Of a stretch of DNA of 64,000 nucleotides, positions 3,378 to 57,948 are shown one piece after another. Source of the stretch: an uncultured Alphaproteobacteria bacterium (GTDB taxonomy: Bacteria > Pseudomonadota > Alphaproteobacteria > CAAHEQ01 > UBA3637). The position numbers were made by a program, and so were the translations under genes. The DNA is taken from contig CAKQGY010000002.1 in NCBI GenBank assembly GCA_934234055.1, positions 74,427-138,426 on the forward strand. Reading direction: 5' to 3'. The notes beneath the pieces are model-generated. The model saw nothing but the letters and a program-made list of their open reading frames with translations, had not been told where the DNA came from and ran no database searches. The first letter of the stretch is position 1, and each line of letters starts with the position of its first letter.

Positions 3378-5021
3378 ATGACAAAATATATCTTTATATT
3401 AGGGGGTGTGGTATCCTCGTTAGGCAAGGGAATCGCGTCGGCAGCAACGGGAAGCCTGTTAAAGGCAAGAGGCTATTCGGTGCGAATGCGGAAAATGGAC
3501 CCCTATTTGAACATTGACCCGGGGACAATGTCGCCCTATCAACACGGGGAAGTCTTTGTGACTGACGACGGTGCCGAAACAGATCTGGACCTGGGGCACT
3601 ATGAGCGCTTTACAGGCGTCAATTGCCATAAAACCGACAGCATTTCGGGCGGGCGAATCTATTATAATGTGATCCAAAAAGAACGCCGGGGAAATTACTT
3701 GGGCGCAACGGTGCAGGCTATTCCGCATGTGACAAATGAAATTAAAGACTTTTTGAAGTCCGACCTGCACGGGGAGGATTTCGTCCTGTATGAAGTGGGG
3801 GGAACGGTCGGTGATATTGAGGGGACTTTGTTCCTGGAAGCAATCCGGCAATTCGCCAATGAGGTCGGACGCGAAAATGTGTGCTTTTTGTTCCTGACGC
3901 TGCTGCCGTATATTCCGACAGCGGGAGAATTGAAAACAAAACCCACGCAACACGCGATCAAAACCCTGATGGAAGCGGGGATTCAAGCCGATATTCTGCT
4001 GTGCCGCAGTCAGCAAATGCTGGGGTCGGATGAACGACGGAAGTTGGCTTTGTTCTGTAATGTCGCACCCGACGATGTGATTATGGCGTTGGACGCGGAC
4101 AGCATCTATAAAATCCCCCTCACCTATCACGAGCAAGGATTAGATGTGCAGGTGTTAAAACACTTTGGTATGTTGGCACAATCGCCCGAACCCGATCTGG
4201 ATTCGTGGAAAAAAATTATCTCGGTCATACAAAACTATGAAAAAGAAGTGAAAATTGCCGTGGTGGGGAAATACTGCGGGCTGTTGGAAGCATATAAATC
4301 CCTGCACGAAGCGTTGATACATGCGGGAATTGCCAATAATGCCAAAGTCAAAATTGCTTGGTTGGAAGCCGAACAATTAGAAGGTAAAACACAAGAAGAA
4401 GTCAATCAAACATTAAAACCCTATGCCGGGATTCTCATTCCGGGCGGATTCGGTCAACGCGGTATTGACGGCAAAATTAAAGCGATTCGCTATGCCCGCG
4501 AGCATCAGGTGCCTTTCTTCGGGATTTGCCTGGGAATGCAAATGGCCGTGGTGGAAGCATGCCGGAATATGTTGGGGATTGCACAGGCAGGATCGGCCGA
4601 ATTCGGGGATGATTGTGTGCCGGTGATTTCTAAAATGAAAGTCTGGGAGCAGGACGGGAAAAAGCAAATCCGACCCGATAACGGCGATCTGGGCGGGACA
4701 ATGCGGCTGGGGGCGTATCCGTGCGACCTGAAACCCGGGTCGTTGGCAGCACAAATCTATGGCGGAAAAACCGAAATTCGCGAACGGCATCGCCACCGTT
4801 ATGAAATGGATATTTCGTATGAGGGGCAGTTGGCCGAAAAGGGCATGGTTATCTCGGGCAAATCGCCGGACAAGTTGCTGCCGGAAATTGTGGAAATACC
4901 GACCCATCCGTTCTTTATCGGCGTGCAATTTCACCCGGAATTTACTTCACGACCCAATAACCCCAATCCGATCTTTCGGGCGTTTATAGAAGCCGCCTTG
5001 AAACACGGATACCTGGTTTAG
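3378..5021 (+). CDS. pyrG: CTP synthase
   Basis: 547 aa. The N-terminal [12 protein letters not shown]-loop-like synthase domain and the C-terminal glutamine amidotransferase motifs (GICLGMQ, HPEF) are present. Confidence 0.95.
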
Positions 5022-6433
5022 TCCACGACTGCTATATGTAAGATGTTGGTGTTCCCTTTCTGCGCAAAGGGAATGCCGGCCGTGATGATAATTTCCTGAC
5101 CCTTGGATGCCATTTTGAGCGCTTTGGCCTGATGCACTGCGACAGGAGAAACCTCGGTCATATCGTGCAGCGAATGCGTCCAGGCCGGCGTGACCCCCCA
5201 CACAAGCGCCAAGCGGTTGGCAATCTTTTCATTCGGAGTGAGCCCCAAAATGGGGACAGGAGCACGCTCACGCGAGACGCGCATTGTCGTTTTACCGGAA
5301 ACGGAATAAGTGGCAATGCAGGCAGGCTTGTCCAAAACCTGAACCATATTCTTCATACAGGAGGTAATGGCACTGGCAACCGTCTTGTCGGGCGGAAGGG
5401 TGTGCATCTCCATCGCGCGAACATAATAGCCGTCAACCTGAATCTTGTCAATGATTTGACGCATCATCTTGACCGCCTGAACCGGATATTGCCCAACAGC
5501 CGTCTCGGCCGATAACATCACGCAATCGGCACCCTCGTATACCGCGGTGGCCACATCGGAAACCTCGGCCCGCGTGGGGACAGGTGCGCTGATCATACTT
5601 TCCAACATTTGGGTGGCAACAATCACCGGCTTGCCCGCGCGACGGCAGGTGTCTACAATCTGATGCTGTAAGGCGGGGACGGTCTCTATGGGGCACTCTA
5701 CGCCCAAATCACCACGCGCCACCATCACCCCGTCGGCCAAGTCCACAATCGCGTTTAAGTTCAAAATCGCAGAGGGCTTTTCAATCTTGACAATAATGCC
5801 GGCACGATCGCCGATAATCTGGCGAGCCTGCTTGACATCGGCGGGTTGCTGAACAAATGACAGGCACACCCAATCGACGCCGAGTTTGAGTGCAAAATCC
5901 AGATCCTGTTTGTCCTTGGCCGTCAGTGCGGAAATGGGCAGAACAACATCGGGAAGATTAACCCCCTTGTGGTCCGAAAGCACACCGCCGACCAGGACTT
6001 TTGTCGTGAGTGCCGTGCGTGATACTGCCGTGACGGAAAGCTGAATCTGGCCGTCATTGAGCAGCAGAGTCATCCCTTTTTTGACGGCACGGTAAATCTC
6101 GGGGTGGGGCAAAAGAACACGATCGGGCGTGCCGGGATCCTTATTCATGTCCAGCGTGAAAGTCTGGCCCTTTTTAAGGGTGATTTTACCCTCGGCAAAA
6201 GTGCCGACGCGCAACTTGGGCCCCTGCATATCCGCCAAAATACTGATAAAGCGATTGTGTTTTTTGGCCAGGCGGCGAATCGTCTGATAACGCTGCTTTT
6301 GCTCGGCGGGAGTGCCGTGGCTGAAATTCATACGAAAAACATCTACGCCCGCAAGCATCAGGTCTTCTATTTTGTCAGGGGTGGAGGTGGCCGGCCCCAA
6401 AGTCGCCACTATTTTCGTGAACATTTGTTTCAT
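5018..6433 (-). CDS. pyk: Pyruvate kinase
   Basis: 471 aa with canonical PK N-terminus ([11 protein letters not shown]...FRMNFSHG) and the MVARGDLG motif. Its stop codon overlaps the pyrG stop on the opposite strand. Confidence 0.9.
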
Positions 6434-8403: not shown

Positions 8404-8528
8404 CTGTAATAATCTCCTAGCAAGACTAGACTAACTTTTTTTTTAACGAATAACAAGCAAAAAAATGCTTTTTCTTGACTTTTTTTGAAAAATGAGGCAT
8501 ATTACCAACAAATTTGAAAAGGTTTTGA

Positions 8529-9968
8529 ATGACAAATACGAATAAACAGGTTCGGGAAATTGTTGCAGAAAAATATCGCTACGGCTGGGAAACAGAAGTG
8601 GCGGTGGATACGGTGCCCAAAGGATTGAATGAAGACATTATCCGCCGGATCTCGCACAAAAAGAACGAGCCGGGTTGGTTGCTGGACTTTCGAATCCGAG
8701 CCTTTCGGCATTGGCAAACCATGACCGAACCGCATTGGGGGAAGTTTGACTATGCGCCGATAGACTATCAGGACCTGTATTACTATGCCGCACCGCAAAC
8801 CAAAAAAGTCGGGTCGTTGGAAGAAGTGGATCCGGAGATCCTGAAAACCTATGAAAAGCTGGGAATCCCCCTGACGGAGCAAAAAGTGCTGGCGGGAGTG
8901 GCGGTGGACGCTATCTTTGACAGCGTGTCGGTTGCGACAACCTATCGTAAGCAATTGAAAGAAAAAGGAATTATATTTTGTTCTATGTCGGAAGCGGTGC
9001 GCGACTATCCGGAATTGGTGAAAGAATATCTGGGATCGGTGGTGCCCTATACGGATAATTTTTTTGCGTGTTTGAACAGCGCGGTGTTCTCGGACGGGTC
9101 GTTCGTCTATATCCCCAAAGGTGTGCGCGCGCCATTGGAATTGTCCAGCTATTTCCGAATCAATGCCAGAAACAGCGGACAGTTTGAACGCACCCTGATT
9201 ATCGCGGAAGACGATTCATATGTAAGCTATCTGGAAGGGTGCACGGCGCCGCAACGCGACGAAAATCAACTGCACGCCGCAATCGTTGAAATTATCGTCA
9301 AAGACCGCGCGGAAGTCAAATACTCAACCGTGCAAAACTGGTACCCCGGGGACGAAAACGGACGCGGAGGAATCTATAACTTTGTGACGAAACGCGGGCT
9401 GTGTCATAATCACGCAAAGCTGTCGTGGACGCAGGTGGAAACGGGATCGGCCATTACCTGGAAATATCCGAGTTGCATTTTGAAAGGCGACTATGCGGTG
9501 GGGGAATTCTATTCGGTGGCCCTGACCAATCATCACCAGCAGGCCGATACCGGCACAAAAATGATCCACTTGGGGAAGCATACTTCCTCTACCATTATTT
9601 CAAAAGGAATATCGGCGGGGTGCTCGAATAACACCTATCGCGGGCAGGTTAAAATCACAAGCGGGGCAGAAGATGCCCGGAACTTTTCGCGATGCGACAG
9701 CCTGCTGATCGGGGACAAATGCGGCGCGCATACAATCCCGGTGATGTCGTGCGCCAATACCTCGGGCGCCATAGAACACGAGGCGACGACCTCTAAAATA
9801 TCGGAAGAACAACTGTTCTATGCCGAATCGCGCGGATTGTCGGCAGAGCAGGCCGTGGGTCTGATCGTGAACGGCTTTTGCCGGGAAGTCATGCAAAAAT
9901 TGCCGATGGAGTTTGCTATTGAAGCGCAACGCTTGATCGGTATCAACTTGGAAGGAACTGTGGGATGA
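8529..9968 (+). CDS. sufB: Fe-S cluster assembly protein SufB
   Basis: 479-aa SufB/SufD beta-helix protein with the conserved SufB C-terminal region. Confidence 0.9.
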
Positions 9969-10249
9969 AACATCAATATGCACCCGAAAATGTGTGTGAA
10001 AAAGCCCTGAAAACATGGGGCAAAAATGCGCAGATGCTGCAACTGTTGGAAGAGATGAGCGAGTTGCAAAAGGAAGTCATCAAAAATATCAATCGCGGGC
10101 AGGATAATGTCGCGGCCTTGGCCGAAGAAGCCGCCGATGTGATGATTATGATGGAACAACTGATCTATATCTATGGTATTGATGAGCAGGTTCGTCAGCA
10201 GGCGGCATATAAAATCAATCGCCTGAAAAAACACTTGGAGATGCCATAA
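9965..10249 (+). CDS. MazG-like all-alpha nucleotide pyrophosphohydrolase (small NTP-PPase)
   Basis: 94 aa with the two EExxE-type motifs of MazG-like NTP-PPases ([22 protein letters not shown]). ATGA overlap with sufB. Confidence 0.6.
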
Positions 10250-10794
10250 TGCTGGTTGTCAATCTGTTCGCAGGACCGGGAGCCGGAAAATCTACTTTGA
10301 GTGCGTATACTTTCGCACAATTGAAAATGCGAAAAGTCAACTGCGAGTTGGTGACGGAATTCGCAAAAGATAAAGTCTGGGAGCAAAATGCCTGTGCCCT
10401 GAATAACCAGGTCTATGTGTTCGCAAAACAATCCTATCGAATCAGTCGCTGTGCCGACAAAGTTGATGTGGTTATCACCGATTCGCCGATGGTCTTGTCG
10501 GCTTTGTATAACAAAGATCCGATGATTGATAAGCCGCTGCGGGACCTGATAAAAGCGGTGGATAGTAAATACGAGTCGCTGAACTACTTTTTGAAACGAA
10601 AAAAAATCTATAACCCGGTGGGGCGACTGCAAACCGAATCAGAAGCAAAAGAAATTGATCAGGCTGTGAAAAAATTGCTGGCGGACTTCGCCCTGCCCTA
10701 TCGGGAAATTGACGGCGATTTGGCCGCGGCCGATGTGATTGTGCAAGATGTATTATCCAAAATGGAGGCAAAAAATGGCACTGCTGGAAATTAA
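10249..10794 (+). CDS. P-loop NTPase, NadR-type (AAA_28 / ribosylnicotinamide-kinase-like) small kinase
   Basis: Walker A GPGAGKST at the N-terminus. The VTEFAKD...LPYREIDG layout resembles the NadR RNK domain. TAATG overlap with the MazG-like gene, and its 3' end overlaps the sufC start. Confidence 0.55.
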   Translation: MLVVNLFAGPGAGKSTLSAYTFAQLKMRKVNCELVTEFAKDKVWEQNACALNNQVYVFAKQSYRISRCADKVDVVITDSPMVLSALYNKDPMIDKPLRDLIKAVDSKYESLNYFLKRKKIYNPVGRLQTESEAKEIDQAVKKLLADFALPYREIDGDLAAADVIVQDVLSKMEAKNGTAGN

Positions 10795-11518
10795 AAACTT
10801 GTGTGCGCGGGTGGGCGAAAAAGAAATCCTGAAAGACTTTTCATTGACAATCGACGCGGGTGAAGTGCACGCGATTATGGGACCAAACGGCTCGGGCAAA
10901 AGCACTCTGTCTAATGTAATTGCGGGGAATCCCGCCTATACCATTACGGGAGGCAGTATTACCTTTAAGGGGAAAAATGTGCTGGCCATGAAACCGGACG
11001 AACGCGCGAACTGCGGGATCTTTTTGGCCTTTCAAATGCCGACGGAATTGCCGGGCGTGAGTACGGCTTTGTTCCTGAAAAATGCACTGAACGCCAAGCG
11101 GAAATACCTGGGCGAATCGGAATTGGACGCAGTGGGCTTTATGAAGCGCCTGAAACCACGGGCGCAGGCGTTGGGAATCACGGATGAAATGCTGAAACGA
11201 CCGGTCAATGTGGGCTTTTCAGGCGGCGAAAAAAAACGCATGGAGACGTTCCAAATGGCGTTCTTGGAACCGGATTTTTGTATTCTGGACGAAATGGATT
11301 CGGGGCTGGATATTGATGCGCTGCGCACCGTGTCGGACGCCGTGAATGTGATGCGAGAACCGAATCGCGCGTTTTTGTTGATTACACACCATACGGATAT
11401 TTTGGACTATATCAAGCCGGATTTCGTGCATGTCCTGGTCGGCGGGCGAATCGTCAAAACGGGGCCGCGGGAATTGGCGGCTGAATTGGAAAAAACAGGC
11501 TATGATCAATATAAATAA
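10775..11518 (+). CDS. sufC: Fe-S cluster assembly ATPase SufC
   Basis: ABC ATPase with Walker A GPNGSGKST, signature FSGGEKKR and a D-loop. GGAGG SD sits 6 nt upstream of the ATG at 10775. Confidence 0.9.
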   Translation: MALLEIKNLCARVGEKEILKDFSLTIDAGEVHAIMGPNGSGKSTLSNVIAGNPAYTITGGSITFKGKNVLAMKPDERANCGIFLAFQMPTELPGVSTALFLKNALNAKRKYLGESELDAVGFMKRLKPRAQALGITDEMLKRPVNVGFSGGEKKRMETFQMAFLEPDFCILDEMDSGLDIDALRTVSDAVNVMREPNRAFLLITHHTDILDYIKPDFVHVLVGGRIVKTGPRELAAELEKTGYDQYK

Positions 11519-12128: not shown

Positions 12129-13308
12129 TTTTCCCCTGCTGATCGGGACAAAAACGACTTATTTGGATACAGCCGCATCGGCGCAAAAACCGACCGTGGT
12201 ATTGGAGGCAATGGAAACCTTTTACCGCACCGCTTATGCGAATCCGCACCGCGGACAATGCGATATTGCAACCCATGCGACGGCGGCCTATGAGCAGGCT
12301 CGACAGACCGTAGCGGACTTTATTCACGCCGATTCGCACGAAATCATCTTTACCAAAGGCACAACGGAGGGAATCAACCTGCTGGCGAACGGGTATGCCG
12401 AGCGGCTGCACGCGGGGGACGAGGTGCTAGTCTGTATCGCCGAACATCATGCGGACTTTGTGCCGTGGCAACAGGCGTGTCGACGGACGGGAGCAACCTT
12501 TAAGGTCTTTGATATTTTGCCGGACGGACGAATTGATTGGGCGGATTTTGAGGCGAAATTGTCGGAAAAAACACGCTTGGTTGCGGTGGCGCAGGTGTCT
12601 AATGTGCTGGGCCTGGTGAATCCGATTCGCGATATTATTGAACGCGCACACGCCGTCGGGGCCGATGTCTTGATAGACGGGGCGCAATCCATTGCGCATA
12701 TGCCGGTTGATGTGCGGGAATTGGACTGTGATTACTATGCCTTTTCAGGGCACAAAATCTATGGGCCGACGGGAATCGGTGTTCTGTATGGCAAAAAGGA
12801 AAAATTGGAGACCCTGCCCCCCTATCAATTCGGGGGGGATATGATCAAAACGGTGTCGGTGGATCAAACCACTTTCGCCGATGTGCCGGCTCGGTTTGAG
12901 GCCGGAACGACCCCTTTTGTGGAAGCTGTGGGATTGGCGGAAGCGATTCGCTATGTCTCGCGAATCGGTATGGATAAAATCGCGACGCACGAAGAAGCAT
13001 TGACGAAGCGGCTGGTGGCGGAAATTGAACGCCTGCCGGGCGCAAAAATCCTGGGGAGTTGCCCGGATAAGCACGGGCTGTGCGCCTTTAATATCGCGGG
13101 TGTGCACCCGGCGGATTTGGCCTTTGTGCTGTCAAAAGAAAATATCTGTGTGCGGGTGGGACATCACTGTGCGATGCCGATTCATAAGCGTTTGGGCGTG
13201 GAAGTGTCGCTGCGCGCGTCGCTGGGATTATATAATGATATGAGTGATATAGAGGCCTTTATTCAAGGAATACTGAAAGCGTTAGACCTGTTGGGAGTAA
13301 AGTCATGA
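12115..13308 (+). CDS. sufS: Cysteine desulfurase SufS (class V aminotransferase)
   Basis: 397 aa with PLP-lysine region SGHK and the active-site Cys loop (RVGHHCA). Confidence 0.9.
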   Translation: MLRDDFPLLIGTKTTYLDTAASAQKPTVVLEAMETFYRTAYANPHRGQCDIATHATAAYEQARQTVADFIHADSHEIIFTKGTTEGINLLANGYAERLHAGDEVLVCIAEHHADFVPWQQACRRTGATFKVFDILPDGRIDWADFEAKLSEKTRLVAVAQVSNVLGLVNPIRDIIERAHAVGADVLIDGAQSIAHMPVDVRELDCDYYAFSGHKIYGPTGIGVLYGKKEKLETLPPYQFGGDMIKTVSVDQTTFADVPARFEAGTTPFVEAVGLAEAIRYVSRIGMDKIATHEEALTKRLVAEIERLPGAKILGSCPDKHGLCAFNIAGVHPADLAFVLSKENICVRVGHHCAMPIHKRLGVEVSLRASLGLYNDMSDIEAFIQGILKALDLLGVKS

Positions 13309-13700
13309 GCGAACCGATTGTGCCGCCGGTGCCGGATACGCCGGATATGGATTTGGCTTTTAAGGCAACGGCCGGAGAGCCGATGGACCCCGCCACCGTG
13401 CCGGCAACCCATGAGGATATTCTGCGGGCCCTAAAAGCCGTGCAAGATCCCGAATTGATGTTGAGCCTGTATGATTTGGGATTAATCTATAAGGTAGAAC
13501 AACAGGAAAACGGTGATGTGTATGTCCTGATGACCTTGACTTCGCCGACGTGTCCGATGGCCGGGGAAATGCCCGCAATGGTGGCAAATGCCGTGGCGTC
13601 TGTCCCCGGGACGGGTGTGATTACGGTGGAGTTGACCTTTGACCCGCCGTGGAGCCTGGACATGGTGAGTGAGGATATTCGCCTGATGATGGGGATTTAA
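13305..13700 (+). CDS. sufT: DUF59 (MIP18/SufT-like) Fe-S assembly protein
   Basis: 131 aa. The DPELMLSLYDLGLIY...TLTSPTCPMAG motif is typical of DUF59. ATGA-coupled to sufS. Confidence 0.7.
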   Translation: MSEPIVPPVPDTPDMDLAFKATAGEPMDPATVPATHEDILRALKAVQDPELMLSLYDLGLIYKVEQQENGDVYVLMTLTSPTCPMAGEMPAMVANAVASVPGTGVITVELTFDPPWSLDMVSEDIRLMMGI

Positions 13701-13884: not shown

Positions 13885-15003
13885 ATGGAGTTAAATTTAA
13901 AAAAGAATCTTTTTCGCTATGGAAAAAATGAGCCACTAACATTTGGTGTAATTGTCTCTTTAGTGCTTTTTGATATTTTAGTATGGAGCCTGATATCAAT
14001 GGGCATGATCAGCGTAGACTACCGCTTTTCTGATGAAAACAATTGTCATTCTCAGGTGTATGCTATTTTAAATCGTGATATTCCAAAATTTGAGTATTAT
14101 TCGCCAAAAACAGGAAAATACTGCGCCTTGTTTCAAAAAGAATATGATAAAGTAAGTTCTGATAAATCTGTTGTAAATGCTTTAAACGACATTTATCAAA
14201 CAGAAAAAAGAATCAATCAACTGGCAACAGAAATAGGGACGGCTCGGTATACATTAGAGGAAAATGCAACGGCTTATAACATTGCCATTCAAGAGCAAAA
14301 AGGACTTGATTTATCTTACACGGGAAAAATCAAAGAAATCCAGGAAAATGAGCAAGAACTAGAACAAGTTAAACAACATTTAATTCAACAAAAGCAAAAT
14401 TTTAAATCATTACCCGCAGTTCAACAATTAATACACTATACGCAACAAAATCAAAGCAACATATTTGCCCGGTATACCTTTATGACCAAGGTGGATTTGT
14501 TCTTAACATATGTTTTTGCTATGCTTTTTGTCGCTATTCTGATACCCGCCCTTATGCTGTTGCGCAGAAGTTTAATCCGTAAAGAAAAGTATATTCGCTT
14601 GCTTGTAGTAAATCATATCATTTTGGTTGCTTTTTTGCAGGGAATTTTTATTACGCTTCGCTTTATCTTGCATATTTTACCGGAAACTCTGCTGCGTAAC
14701 CTGATTGATTTCTTTAGATCTTTGCATCTGATGGCTCTATGGTATTATATAGCAATCGGATTATCGTTTTTACTGTTTGCAGGCGTTGTATATTTTCTGC
14801 AAACAAAAGGGCGGCGCCGGAATTTATACAAAAAATTGATCAAAGGAAAGTGCTGGAATTGTGGTGCGCGAGTACTAGATAACGATTTTTGTTTTTCCTG
14901 CGGAGAAAAGCAATTATGCGTATGCCCACATTGTCGTAAAAAAACATATATAAAAATGCCTTATTGTCGTTTTTGCGGTAAAAGCATAGCCAATGAAGAT
15001 TAG
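13885..15003 (+). CDS. Hypothetical membrane protein with coiled-coil region and C-terminal double zinc ribbon (4x CxxC)
   Basis: 372 aa in a low-GC islet. Order is N-terminal TM, Q/E-rich coiled coil, 3 TM helices, then CWNCG..CFSCG..CPHCR..CRFCG. Confidence 0.6.
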   Translation: MELNLKKNLFRYGKNEPLTFGVIVSLVLFDILVWSLISMGMISVDYRFSDENNCHSQVYAILNRDIPKFEYYSPKTGKYCALFQKEYDKVSSDKSVVNALNDIYQTEKRINQLATEIGTARYTLEENATAYNIAIQEQKGLDLSYTGKIKEIQENEQELEQVKQHLIQQKQNFKSLPAVQQLIHYTQQNQSNIFARYTFMTKVDLFLTYVFAMLFVAILIPALMLLRRSLIRKEKYIRLLVVNHIILVAFLQGIFITLRFILHILPETLLRNLIDFFRSLHLMALWYYIAIGLSFLLFAGVVYFLQTKGRRRNLYKKLIKGKCWNCGARVLDNDFCFSCGEKQLCVCPHCRKKTYIKMPYCRFCGKSIANED

Positions 15004-57447: not shown

Positions 57448-57817
57448 GTCAGATAATCGGATAATCGCTGGCATATTAAAGGGTCAGAGGAAAGTCCGGG
57501 CTTCACAGAAACGCGATACCGGATAACGTCCGGGCGGGGCGACCCGACGGAAAGCGTCACAGAAAACAAACCACCGCAGCATGCTGCGGAACGGATGAAA
57601 AGGCGGGGTAAAAGCCCACCGCGCCGGTGGTAACACAGGTGGCAGGACAAACCCTATCGGAAGCAAGACTAAATAACAGAACACACGCGGAACTTCCGCT
57701 GTTAAAATGAGCGTTTCTGCTCTGGTTCAAGCAGGTAAGTCGCTAGAAGCAAGTAGTAATACTTGCCCCAGATGAATGATTATCAATTACAAAACCCGGC
57801 TTATAGATTATCTGACT
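57448..57817 (+). ncRNA. rnpB: RNase P RNA, bacterial type A
   Basis: Contains AGAGGAAAGTCCGGGCT (P4 5' strand) and ACAAAACCCGGCTTATAG (P4 3' strand). The 3' portion is near-identical to E. coli (CCAGATGAATGA..ACAAAACCCGGCTTAT). The P1 stem pairs GCAGTCAGATAATC with GATTATCTGACT and is followed by a U-run. Confidence 0.9.
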
Positions 57818-57948
57818 TTTTTTTACATCTGATTGTATTCTTTTGATTTTTTTTTACAAATAAAGGTTGACTTCCGGGCAAAATGACACAATATGCCATA
57901 TGTCGGGAGATGGATTGGGGAAGCTGTCCCTGACAGAGAAAGACGGCA

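Follow-up and report, generated by a model that had tools for sequence, protein, structure and literature searches.

The window analysed here, a stretch of 64,000 nucleotides from an uncultured Alphaproteobacteria bacterium (contig CAKQGY010000002.1, positions 74,427 to 138,426 of the forward strand), contains a suf operon, the genes of an iron–sulfur (Fe-S) cluster assembly system, in which two small open reading frames (ORFs) separate sufB from sufC. The two are referred to below as X (94 amino acids, aa) and Y (181 aa). By its sequence and its predicted structure, X belongs to the MazG superfamily as a protein of one domain whose catalytic motif is intact, in a sub-family that the curated libraries do not yet cover. 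The gene is specific to one clade and universal in those of its members that were found, and comparison of the copies indicates that it has long been maintained between sufB and sufC under strong purifying selection. Y is best assigned, on the strength of its sequence and modelled fold, to a phage family of deoxynucleoside monophosphate (dNMP) kinase-like proteins, and is plausibly an analogue of thymidylate kinase. The locus represents an unusual though modest variation on the suf operon, in which a MazG-type gene of phage origin is fixed and a phage kinase occurs sporadically.

Arrangement of the locus

The original prediction, made from the letters of the DNA, held that the usual succession of sufB and sufC is interrupted by two small ORFs, and on this point both the coordinates and the Suf genes identified with Pfam on either side agree with it. 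The genes of the cluster are as follows.

8529–9968, + strand: sufB, 479 aa; Pfam SUFBD_core (2.5e-78) and SufBD_N
9965–10249, + strand: X, 94-aa ORF; single-domain, all-alpha MazG-superfamily nucleoside triphosphate (NTP) pyrophosphohydrolase-like protein; PHROG 2245
10249–10794, + strand: Y, 181-aa ORF; P-loop kinase-like protein; Pfam AAA_28; thymidylate-kinase-like fold
10775–11518, + strand: sufC, 247 aa, ABC ATPase; Pfam ABC_tran (5.7e-20); gene call in the identical contig L001
11502–12128, + strand: short sufD, 208 aa; Pfam SUFBD_core (2.3e-44), profile positions 94–232; gene call in L001
12115–13308, + strand: sufS, cysteine desulfurase, 397 aa; Pfam Aminotran_5 (6.7e-142)
13305–13700, + strand: sufT, DUF59-type Fe-S assembly protein, 131 aa; Pfam FeS_assembly_P (2.3e-19)

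The five suf genes, each with a Pfam match, form one co-oriented cluster of overlapping or abutting genes, and the window's SufB is 76–88% identical to the SufB proteins of related metagenome-assembled genomes (MAGs). The junctions are exactly as had been claimed: ATGA between sufB and X, where the ATG of X overlaps the TGA of sufB; TAATG between X and Y, where the last A of the X stop codon TAA is the first base of the Y start codon; and a 20-nt overlap between Y and sufC, in which the sufC ATG lies at 10775 and the Y stop codon at 10792–10794. Each of the three downstream genes is preceded by a Shine-Dalgarno-like motif that falls within the coding region of its neighbour, these being GGAAGGAA inside sufB before X (9950–9957), GGAGA inside X before Y (10237–10241) and GGAGG inside Y before sufC (10764–10768). 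The protein motifs that the original prediction quoted for X and Y are likewise all present.

This arrangement is not an assembly artefact, since seven independent metagenome contigs show it too, each with the identical X protein. Both X and Y, for which public MAGs give no annotation beyond 'hypothetical protein', are real genes, because X has thousands of homologues and a ratio of nonsynonymous to synonymous substitution rates (dN/dS) of 0.05–0.25, and Y has more than 4300 homologues. The GC content at third codon positions (GC3) of the two genes, 0.54 for X and 0.52 for Y, is slightly below that of the suf genes (0.585–0.66), which fits old, ameliorated acquisitions.

Protein X is a MazG-type protein with an intact metal site

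The description of X as MazG-like proved sound. The protein matches PHROG 2245, 'nucleoside triphosphate pyrophosphohydrolase', with E = 6.8e-24, and more weakly four further MazG-like PHROGs (4856, 1247, 715 and 229). An AF2 model built from 39 homologues has a pLDDT of 95.6 and consists of four helices (residues 8–18, 20–44, 49–70 and 73–90), and when it was compared with the PDB by Foldseek, 19 of the 20 best matches were MazG-superfamily proteins, with probabilities of 0.6–0.98 and TM scores of 0.45–0.61. The families matched include DCTPP1, iMazG, Sulfolobus solfataricus MazG, HisE, RS21-C6, DR2231, Escherichia coli MazG, Bacillus MazG and YpjD. A profile search of PDB sequences also returned MazG families (5ie9, 2gta, 2q73 and 1vmg, E = 0.02–1.5). 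The WD40 repeat proteins that came top in the PDB sequence search were rejected as a repeat-summing artefact of the short repeated word 'KTVKLWNRNGQLLQ', and the Pfam and NCBIfam matches of X to RolB/RolC, DUF5798 and CheY were set aside as noise. Among the PADLOC defence models X gave a single match at chance level (13.7 bits) and Y none.

X contains the motif E30-x-x-E33, followed after 21 residues by E55-x-x-D58, which is invariant across 33–39 homologues; residues E29, E30, E33, E55 and D58 are each invariant in 33 homologues, suf-linked and phage alike. A magnesium-binding Glu/Glu/Glu/Asp set and an EEXX(E/D) motif have been defined for the MazG of Mycobacterium tuberculosis (Mtb) (PMC10014863), and the ExxE...ExxD pattern of X matches that set, such that X would be a MazG-type protein whose metal site is intact.

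Distribution of X and selection on it

A profile scan for X across one genome per GTDB species gave 29 loci. In 21 of these X stands beside suf genes, and wherever the contig extends over both of its flanks these are sufB on one side and sufC on the other. The MAGs concerned are nearly all named 'uncultured Alphaproteobacteria bacterium' and come from human or ruminant gut, and upstream of the operon they share the window's synteny of pyruvate kinase, aldose epimerase and PAS-GGDEF genes. Further metagenome contigs show the same sufB-X-sufC order, bringing the total to about 30 lineages, with suf synteny kept in more than 25 loci. At one locus, L012, X still follows sufB even though sufC is not adjacent. 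Y accompanies X in none of the 21 suf-linked loci of the GTDB scan.

The X frame is intact in every locus. The copies in suf operons are deeply diverged from one another, with about 60% amino acid identity and saturated synonymous sites (dS), and their pairwise dN/dS averages about 0.19, being 0.05–0.10 for the pairs with the least saturation; strains of the window's own species show no nonsynonymous difference in X. The original prediction had raised the question of whether the sufB-X-Y-sufC order is conserved across a clade or is a recent insertion, and here the two genes have to be answered for separately: close relatives without Y exist, and no clade member without X was found among either the GTDB-representative loci or those chosen by their SufB. 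A recent neutral insertion therefore does not account for X.

Protein Y resembles phage dNMP kinases

The original prediction assigned Y to the NadR-type kinases of the AAA_28 family, and of this the family assignment stands and the NadR part does not. Y passes the AAA_28 model of Pfam with 39.5 bits against a cutoff of 27, over residues 6–159 and profile positions 4–162 of 164, and it carries a Walker A P-loop, GPGAGKST, at residues 9–16. It also matches PHROG 2107, 'thymidylate kinase' (6.3e-13). The AF2 model (pLDDT 88.8) finds its best Foldseek matches in the thymidylate kinases 4gmd, 4esh and 4edh, with E = 6e-6 to 1e-5 and TM scores of 0.59–0.66 at 16–17% identity. Thymidylate kinases make up most of the 50 best matches, the remainder including APS and adenylate kinases and a GPN-loop GTPase, and no NadR structure is among the 50. 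Sequence models of thymidylate kinase do not recognise the protein: Y has no match at E<=1 to Pfam Thymidylate_kin (PF02223) or to the NCBIfam tmk equivalog, and a PDB sequence search with Y returned nothing meaningful and no thymidylate kinase.

The homologues of Y, at about 60% identity, are mostly from phage, and jumbo phages account for many of the 101 deposited phage genomes that contain Y. In the phage loci inspected, its neighbours are genes of deoxynucleotide synthesis. In one arrangement Y follows DNA polymerase B, an IMPDH-like gene, a nucleoside deoxyribosyltransferase and an HD nucleotidase, with a T4-type portal gene nearby; in another it stands after dCMP deaminase and a DNA methylase and before ThyA; in a third it lies between NrdD and NrdG on one side and FolD on the other. 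It is this combination of a thymidylate-kinase-like fold with phage neighbours in dNTP synthesis that makes Y look dNMP-kinase-like and not specifically NadR-like. A literature search on AAA_28 in connection with phage found nothing specific.

History of Y within suf operons

Within suf operons Y was seen only in the window's lineage and in L017, L054 and L055/L056, about five of the X-bearing lineages, which account for six of the 120 protein clusters closest to Y. All six end in a sufC-encoded C-terminal tail of the form ..KNGxx[G/R]N, which reads ..KNGTAGN in the window, and they alone of the 120 carry it. The suf-linked copies of Y that were placed in a neighbour-joining tree form a single small clade within the phage homologues; this grouping and the junction that they share point to the gene having been captured once. 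As a separate observation, in two loci without Y (L020 and L023, both at 5998–6297) the X frame itself enters sufC and ends in ..SGN, much like the ..GN tail of Y; such an overlapping tail is thus what the conserved 5' sequence of sufC yields when read out of frame.

The lineages that carry Y are not each other's closest relatives. A neighbour-joining tree was made from the C-terminal part of SufB together with SufC and SufD, with 60 bootstraps. In it the window groups with L055 in 53 of the 60 replicates, L017 and the Y-less L034 are sisters in all 60, and monophyly of the Y-bearing lineages, recovered in 0 of 60, is rejected. It would follow that Y has either been lost cleanly several times or been passed by homologous recombination from one related suf operon to another. 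X shows at least one discordance of its own, being only 52% identical between the sisters L017 and L034 but 71% identical between L017 and L019, and the SufC identities are bimodal relative to those of SufB; parts of the suf operon may accordingly have recombined between members of the clade. Between lineages, Y is under purifying selection, with a dN/dS of about 0.11–0.16 and saturated dS.

Phage relatives and separate acquisition

Outside suf operons, the homologues of X (43–50% identity) lie on viral contigs and in prophage-like regions of Oscillospiraceae, with RusA, SSB, an HD phosphohydrolase and a MazF-like gene among their neighbours, and sometimes X corresponds to the C-terminal half of a longer ORF. 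A case of the latter is the Oscillospiraceae prophage-like locus L042 (5779–6912), where the homologue forms the C-terminal half of a 160-aa ORF, with an HD phosphohydrolase before it and a MazF-like gene two genes after it, in an arrangement that recalls mazEFG of E. coli. Pfam searches with the neighbours of two further non-suf loci, L044 and L046, gave nothing informative.

The original prediction took the pair of pyrophosphatase and kinase to be typical of phage nucleotide-metabolism modules, and for these two families comparison with phage loci does not support it. No X-like ORF (X hidden Markov model, E<=1) occurs within 5 kb of Y in any of 85 viral loci, and tblastn found no Y near X in any of 15 non-suf X loci. 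Since X and Y are adjacent in none of these loci, the two genes appear to have been acquired separately. The related proposal of a domesticated phage fragment is retained only in part: both genes have phage affinity, but they are not one inserted pair, X being present without Y in more than 25 lineages.

The sufB–sufC junction and the length of SufD

As a control, 80 metagenome loci were picked only by similarity to the C-terminus of SufB, and X, Y and SufC were mapped onto them. A sufC match lies downstream in 72 of the 80. Sixty of these have contiguous sufBC, with a gap of at most 188 nt, and the other 12 have an extra ORF at the junction, which is X in three cases and something else in nine. 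The three X-bearing loci are the two closest relatives (SufB 85–86% identical) and one more distant locus (73%). Of the nine other inserts, two consist only of ORFs that could be given no family; the rest comprise FMN_red flavoproteins of two unrelated forms, a 23S-rRNA-IVS protein, a HicA/HicB pair and a tautomerase. The positions of these identified inserts are as follows.

L071, L073 and L076: about 3587–4181
L127: 3590–4087
L124: 3652–4065
L134: 3603–4062
L086: 3641–4018

The sufB–sufC junction is, in other words, a recurrent landing site for cargo in diverse bacteria. Among this cargo, the flavoproteins of the NADPH-dependent FMN reductase type might be genuine partners of Suf.

A second feature of the X-bearing operons is the length of SufD. 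In 25 of 27 X-bearing loci (related loci L011–L038) SufD is short, at about 205–260 aa, and covers only the C-terminal part of SUFBD_core, as against about 390–475 aa in most control loci. The association is not a strict rule. SufD is full-length in the other two X-bearing loci (409 and 443 aa) and short in 14 of 46 loci without X, and the idea that X compensates for a truncated SufD was not upheld as a general one.

Proposed role and alternative explanations

The explanation that we prefer, and hold to be somewhat better than an even bet, is that X and Y are domesticated phage nucleotide enzymes that were captured separately and are expressed together with Suf, X serving to clean the nucleotide pool under the same stress. 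X would have entered the sufB–sufC junction in an ancestor of this clade of uncultured gut Alphaproteobacteria and then have been kept by purifying selection; Y would have been added once, downstream of X, with its frame running 20 nt into sufC, and would have persisted in few lineages. The usual role of Suf is the assembly of Fe-S clusters under oxidative stress or iron limitation, and X, transcribed and translationally coupled with sufBCDS, would be made under these Suf-inducing conditions, where it may hydrolyse non-canonical or oxidised (d)NTPs to (d)NMP and pyrophosphate. Y, an optional addition for salvage, would phosphorylate a dNMP anew, dTMP being the most plausible substrate. The precedent for such stress-linked housecleaning comes from mycobacteria, whose MazG clears 5-OH-dCTP and gives protection from oxidative stress (PMC3855555). 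It is under oxidative stress that Suf, too, is ordinarily required. A search of the literature found no paper linking MazG to a suf operon. The link of X to Fe-S assembly is probably one of shared regulation and not of shared chemistry, and it is in this physiological link that most of the uncertainty of the overall picture sits.

Several observations weigh against this explanation. With respect to the identity of X, no match at E<=1 was obtained to the MazG models of Pfam (PF03819 and PF12643) or NCBIfam, and the individual Foldseek E-values are weak (0.2–3), as is expected for a helical protein of 94 aa; because they are weak, it is the consistency of the families matched that constitutes the real evidence. 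With respect to function, if the kinase acted on the same nucleotide as the pyrophosphatase before it, the two would run a futile cycle. The presence of unrelated cargo at the same junction means that position alone is no proof of a role in Fe-S assembly. Finally, the strains of the window's species differ in Y by 2–3 nonsynonymous and 0–3 synonymous changes, which suggests that Y may be only weakly constrained within the species, and it looks less constrained than X. One 1587-nt ENA contig carries two Y-cluster fragments of 62 and 101 aa (P0250 and P0254), which suggests either that one strain has a Y that is frameshifted or split or that the assembly is in error.

There is a smaller, though still appreciable, chance that the two genes are incidental cargo: the junction would be no more than a permissive site within a strongly expressed operon, and the genes would be kept for some general housekeeping advantage or through hitch-hiking, with no adaptive tie to Suf regulation or Fe-S biology. 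The control survey speaks for this, in that nine of the 12 junction inserts are unrelated to X and two of the kinds found, HicAB and the 23S-rRNA-IVS protein, are typical mobile cargo, and so does the patchy distribution of Y and its weak constraint within the species. What such an account leaves without explanation is X, which occupies exactly the same position in about 30 lineages despite saturated synonymous sites, retains a low dN/dS, stays beside sufB in L012 where sufC is not adjacent, and is missing from no clade member found.

That X is instead a new accessory subunit of Suf, binding SufB and/or SufC, is unlikely. Such a subunit might sense or hydrolyse a nucleotide and so tune the ATPase cycle of SufC, or it might make good the truncation of SufD. 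The strict sufB-X-sufC position, the translational coupling and the retention of X after sufB in the split locus L012 are all in keeping with it, as are the prevalence of short SufD among X-bearing loci and the residues W18 and the KNINRG loop, which are conserved in suf-linked X and different in the phage homologues. Against this, X keeps the full catalytic acidic motif and is nearly half identical to free-standing phage enzymes, and the exceptions in SufD length run in both directions. A shade more doubtful again is the specific form of this idea in which a phage-recruited MazG-fold X binds the SufB/SufC scaffold with its short SufD and links the assembly of Fe-S clusters in this clade to the hydrolysis or sensing of nucleotides.

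Least probable by far is the arrival of a single phage fragment bearing a pyrophosphatase–kinase pair, possibly recent and neutral, or an NAD-related step, with Y as a NadR-type ribosylnicotinamide (NR) kinase, coupled to Fe-S biogenesis: the phage affinity of both genes, their slightly lower GC3 and the AAA_28 score of Y fit it, but the single fragment is already contradicted by the distributions of X and Y, inside and outside suf operons, a recent insertion by the small GC difference and the deep divergence of the suf-linked copies, and the NAD step by the thymidylate kinases among the structural neighbours of Y and a phage context of dNTP synthesis instead of NAD metabolism. For the coupling of a nucleotide-derived signal or cofactor step to Fe-S biogenesis, which the original prediction had proposed, no evidence was found.

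Comparison with known systems

The closest known counterparts of X are the single-domain MazG-type enzymes, such as integron iMazG (2Q73/2Q5Z), DCTPP1/RS21-C6, Bacillus YpjD/BcMazG and the phage MazG-like proteins of PHROG 2245, which share with it a length of about 90–110 aa, four helices and the ExxE...ExxD motif, which provide its best fold matches, and which are often found on mobile elements. X differs from them in lying inside a suf operon, translationally coupled to its neighbours and vertically conserved in a bacterial clade, and in being missed by the Pfam and NCBIfam MazG models. The MazG of Mtb is larger than X and has its catalytic EEXX(E/D) motif in an N-terminal domain (PMC10014863), such that the likeness between the two is limited to the superfamily fold and the motif. 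Y has the P-loop NMP-kinase fold in common with the thymidylate and phage dNMP kinases (Pseudomonas aeruginosa thymidylate kinase, 4GMD/4EDH; PHROG 2107), at about 16% identity and with no Pfam Thymidylate_kin match; thymidylate kinases carry a DR(Y/H/F) motif, at the position of which Y has ITDSP. From the ribosylnicotinamide-kinase domain of NadR, whose AAA_28 gathering threshold it exceeds over nearly the whole model, Y is set apart by having neither NMNAT nor helix-turn-helix (HTH) domains and by a context of deoxynucleotides, not NAD. As for the operon, the window has all the core genes of canonical sufBCDS(T) operons in their usual order and with overlapping junctions, and departs from them in the two extra genes between sufB and sufC and in a SufD of 208 aa. 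To our knowledge, the MazG gene of Mtb is not encoded within suf.

Expression signals and neighbouring features

One candidate promoter-like site precedes the operon, identified by a consensus scan only.

8475–8503, + strand: candidate promoter-like site 5' of sufB, TTGACT-17-CATATT, in the AT-rich intergenic region 8404–8528

Promoter-like sites around the suf cluster are not enriched over shuffled sequences, and the matches to internal promoters or terminators within the cluster are at consensus level only and not clearly above shuffles. Terminator-like sites are modestly commoner than in shuffles (11 against 6.0 +/- 1.9). A terminator-like hairpin with a weak T-run, again a consensus match only, lies within the coding region of Y at 10485–10502 on the + strand.

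Downstream of sufT, a 372-aa ORF at 13885–15003 has no Pfam match and bears several Cys-x-x-Cys pairs near its C-terminus. Its GC content of 0.346 and GC3 of 0.32 compare with a GC content of 0.49 for the window, and the strain contig L003 lacks it, having other genes after sufT; it looks like a strain-variable, recently acquired low-GC gene. The only Rfam or tRNA matches in the window are a bacterial RNase P RNA of class A (57449–57819, 281 bits) and a tRNA-Phe (1056–1131).

Implications

Nothing found here points to new chemistry, and the promiscuity of the sufB–sufC junction is demonstrable. Cargo at this junction matters for the annotation of operons and for the hunt for new Suf partners, for which the FMN reductases may offer the better starting point. 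If co-regulation of X with Suf is true, the clade has the sanitation of its nucleotide pool wired into an Fe-S stress operon, and the locus is a compact case of phage genes domesticated into a core housekeeping operon. A shortage of Fe-S clusters also disables the DNA-repair glycosylases that depend on them, such as MutY and Nth, and for this reason the operon would, on the same condition, be a natural experiment linking Fe-S limitation to the protection of the dNTP pool.

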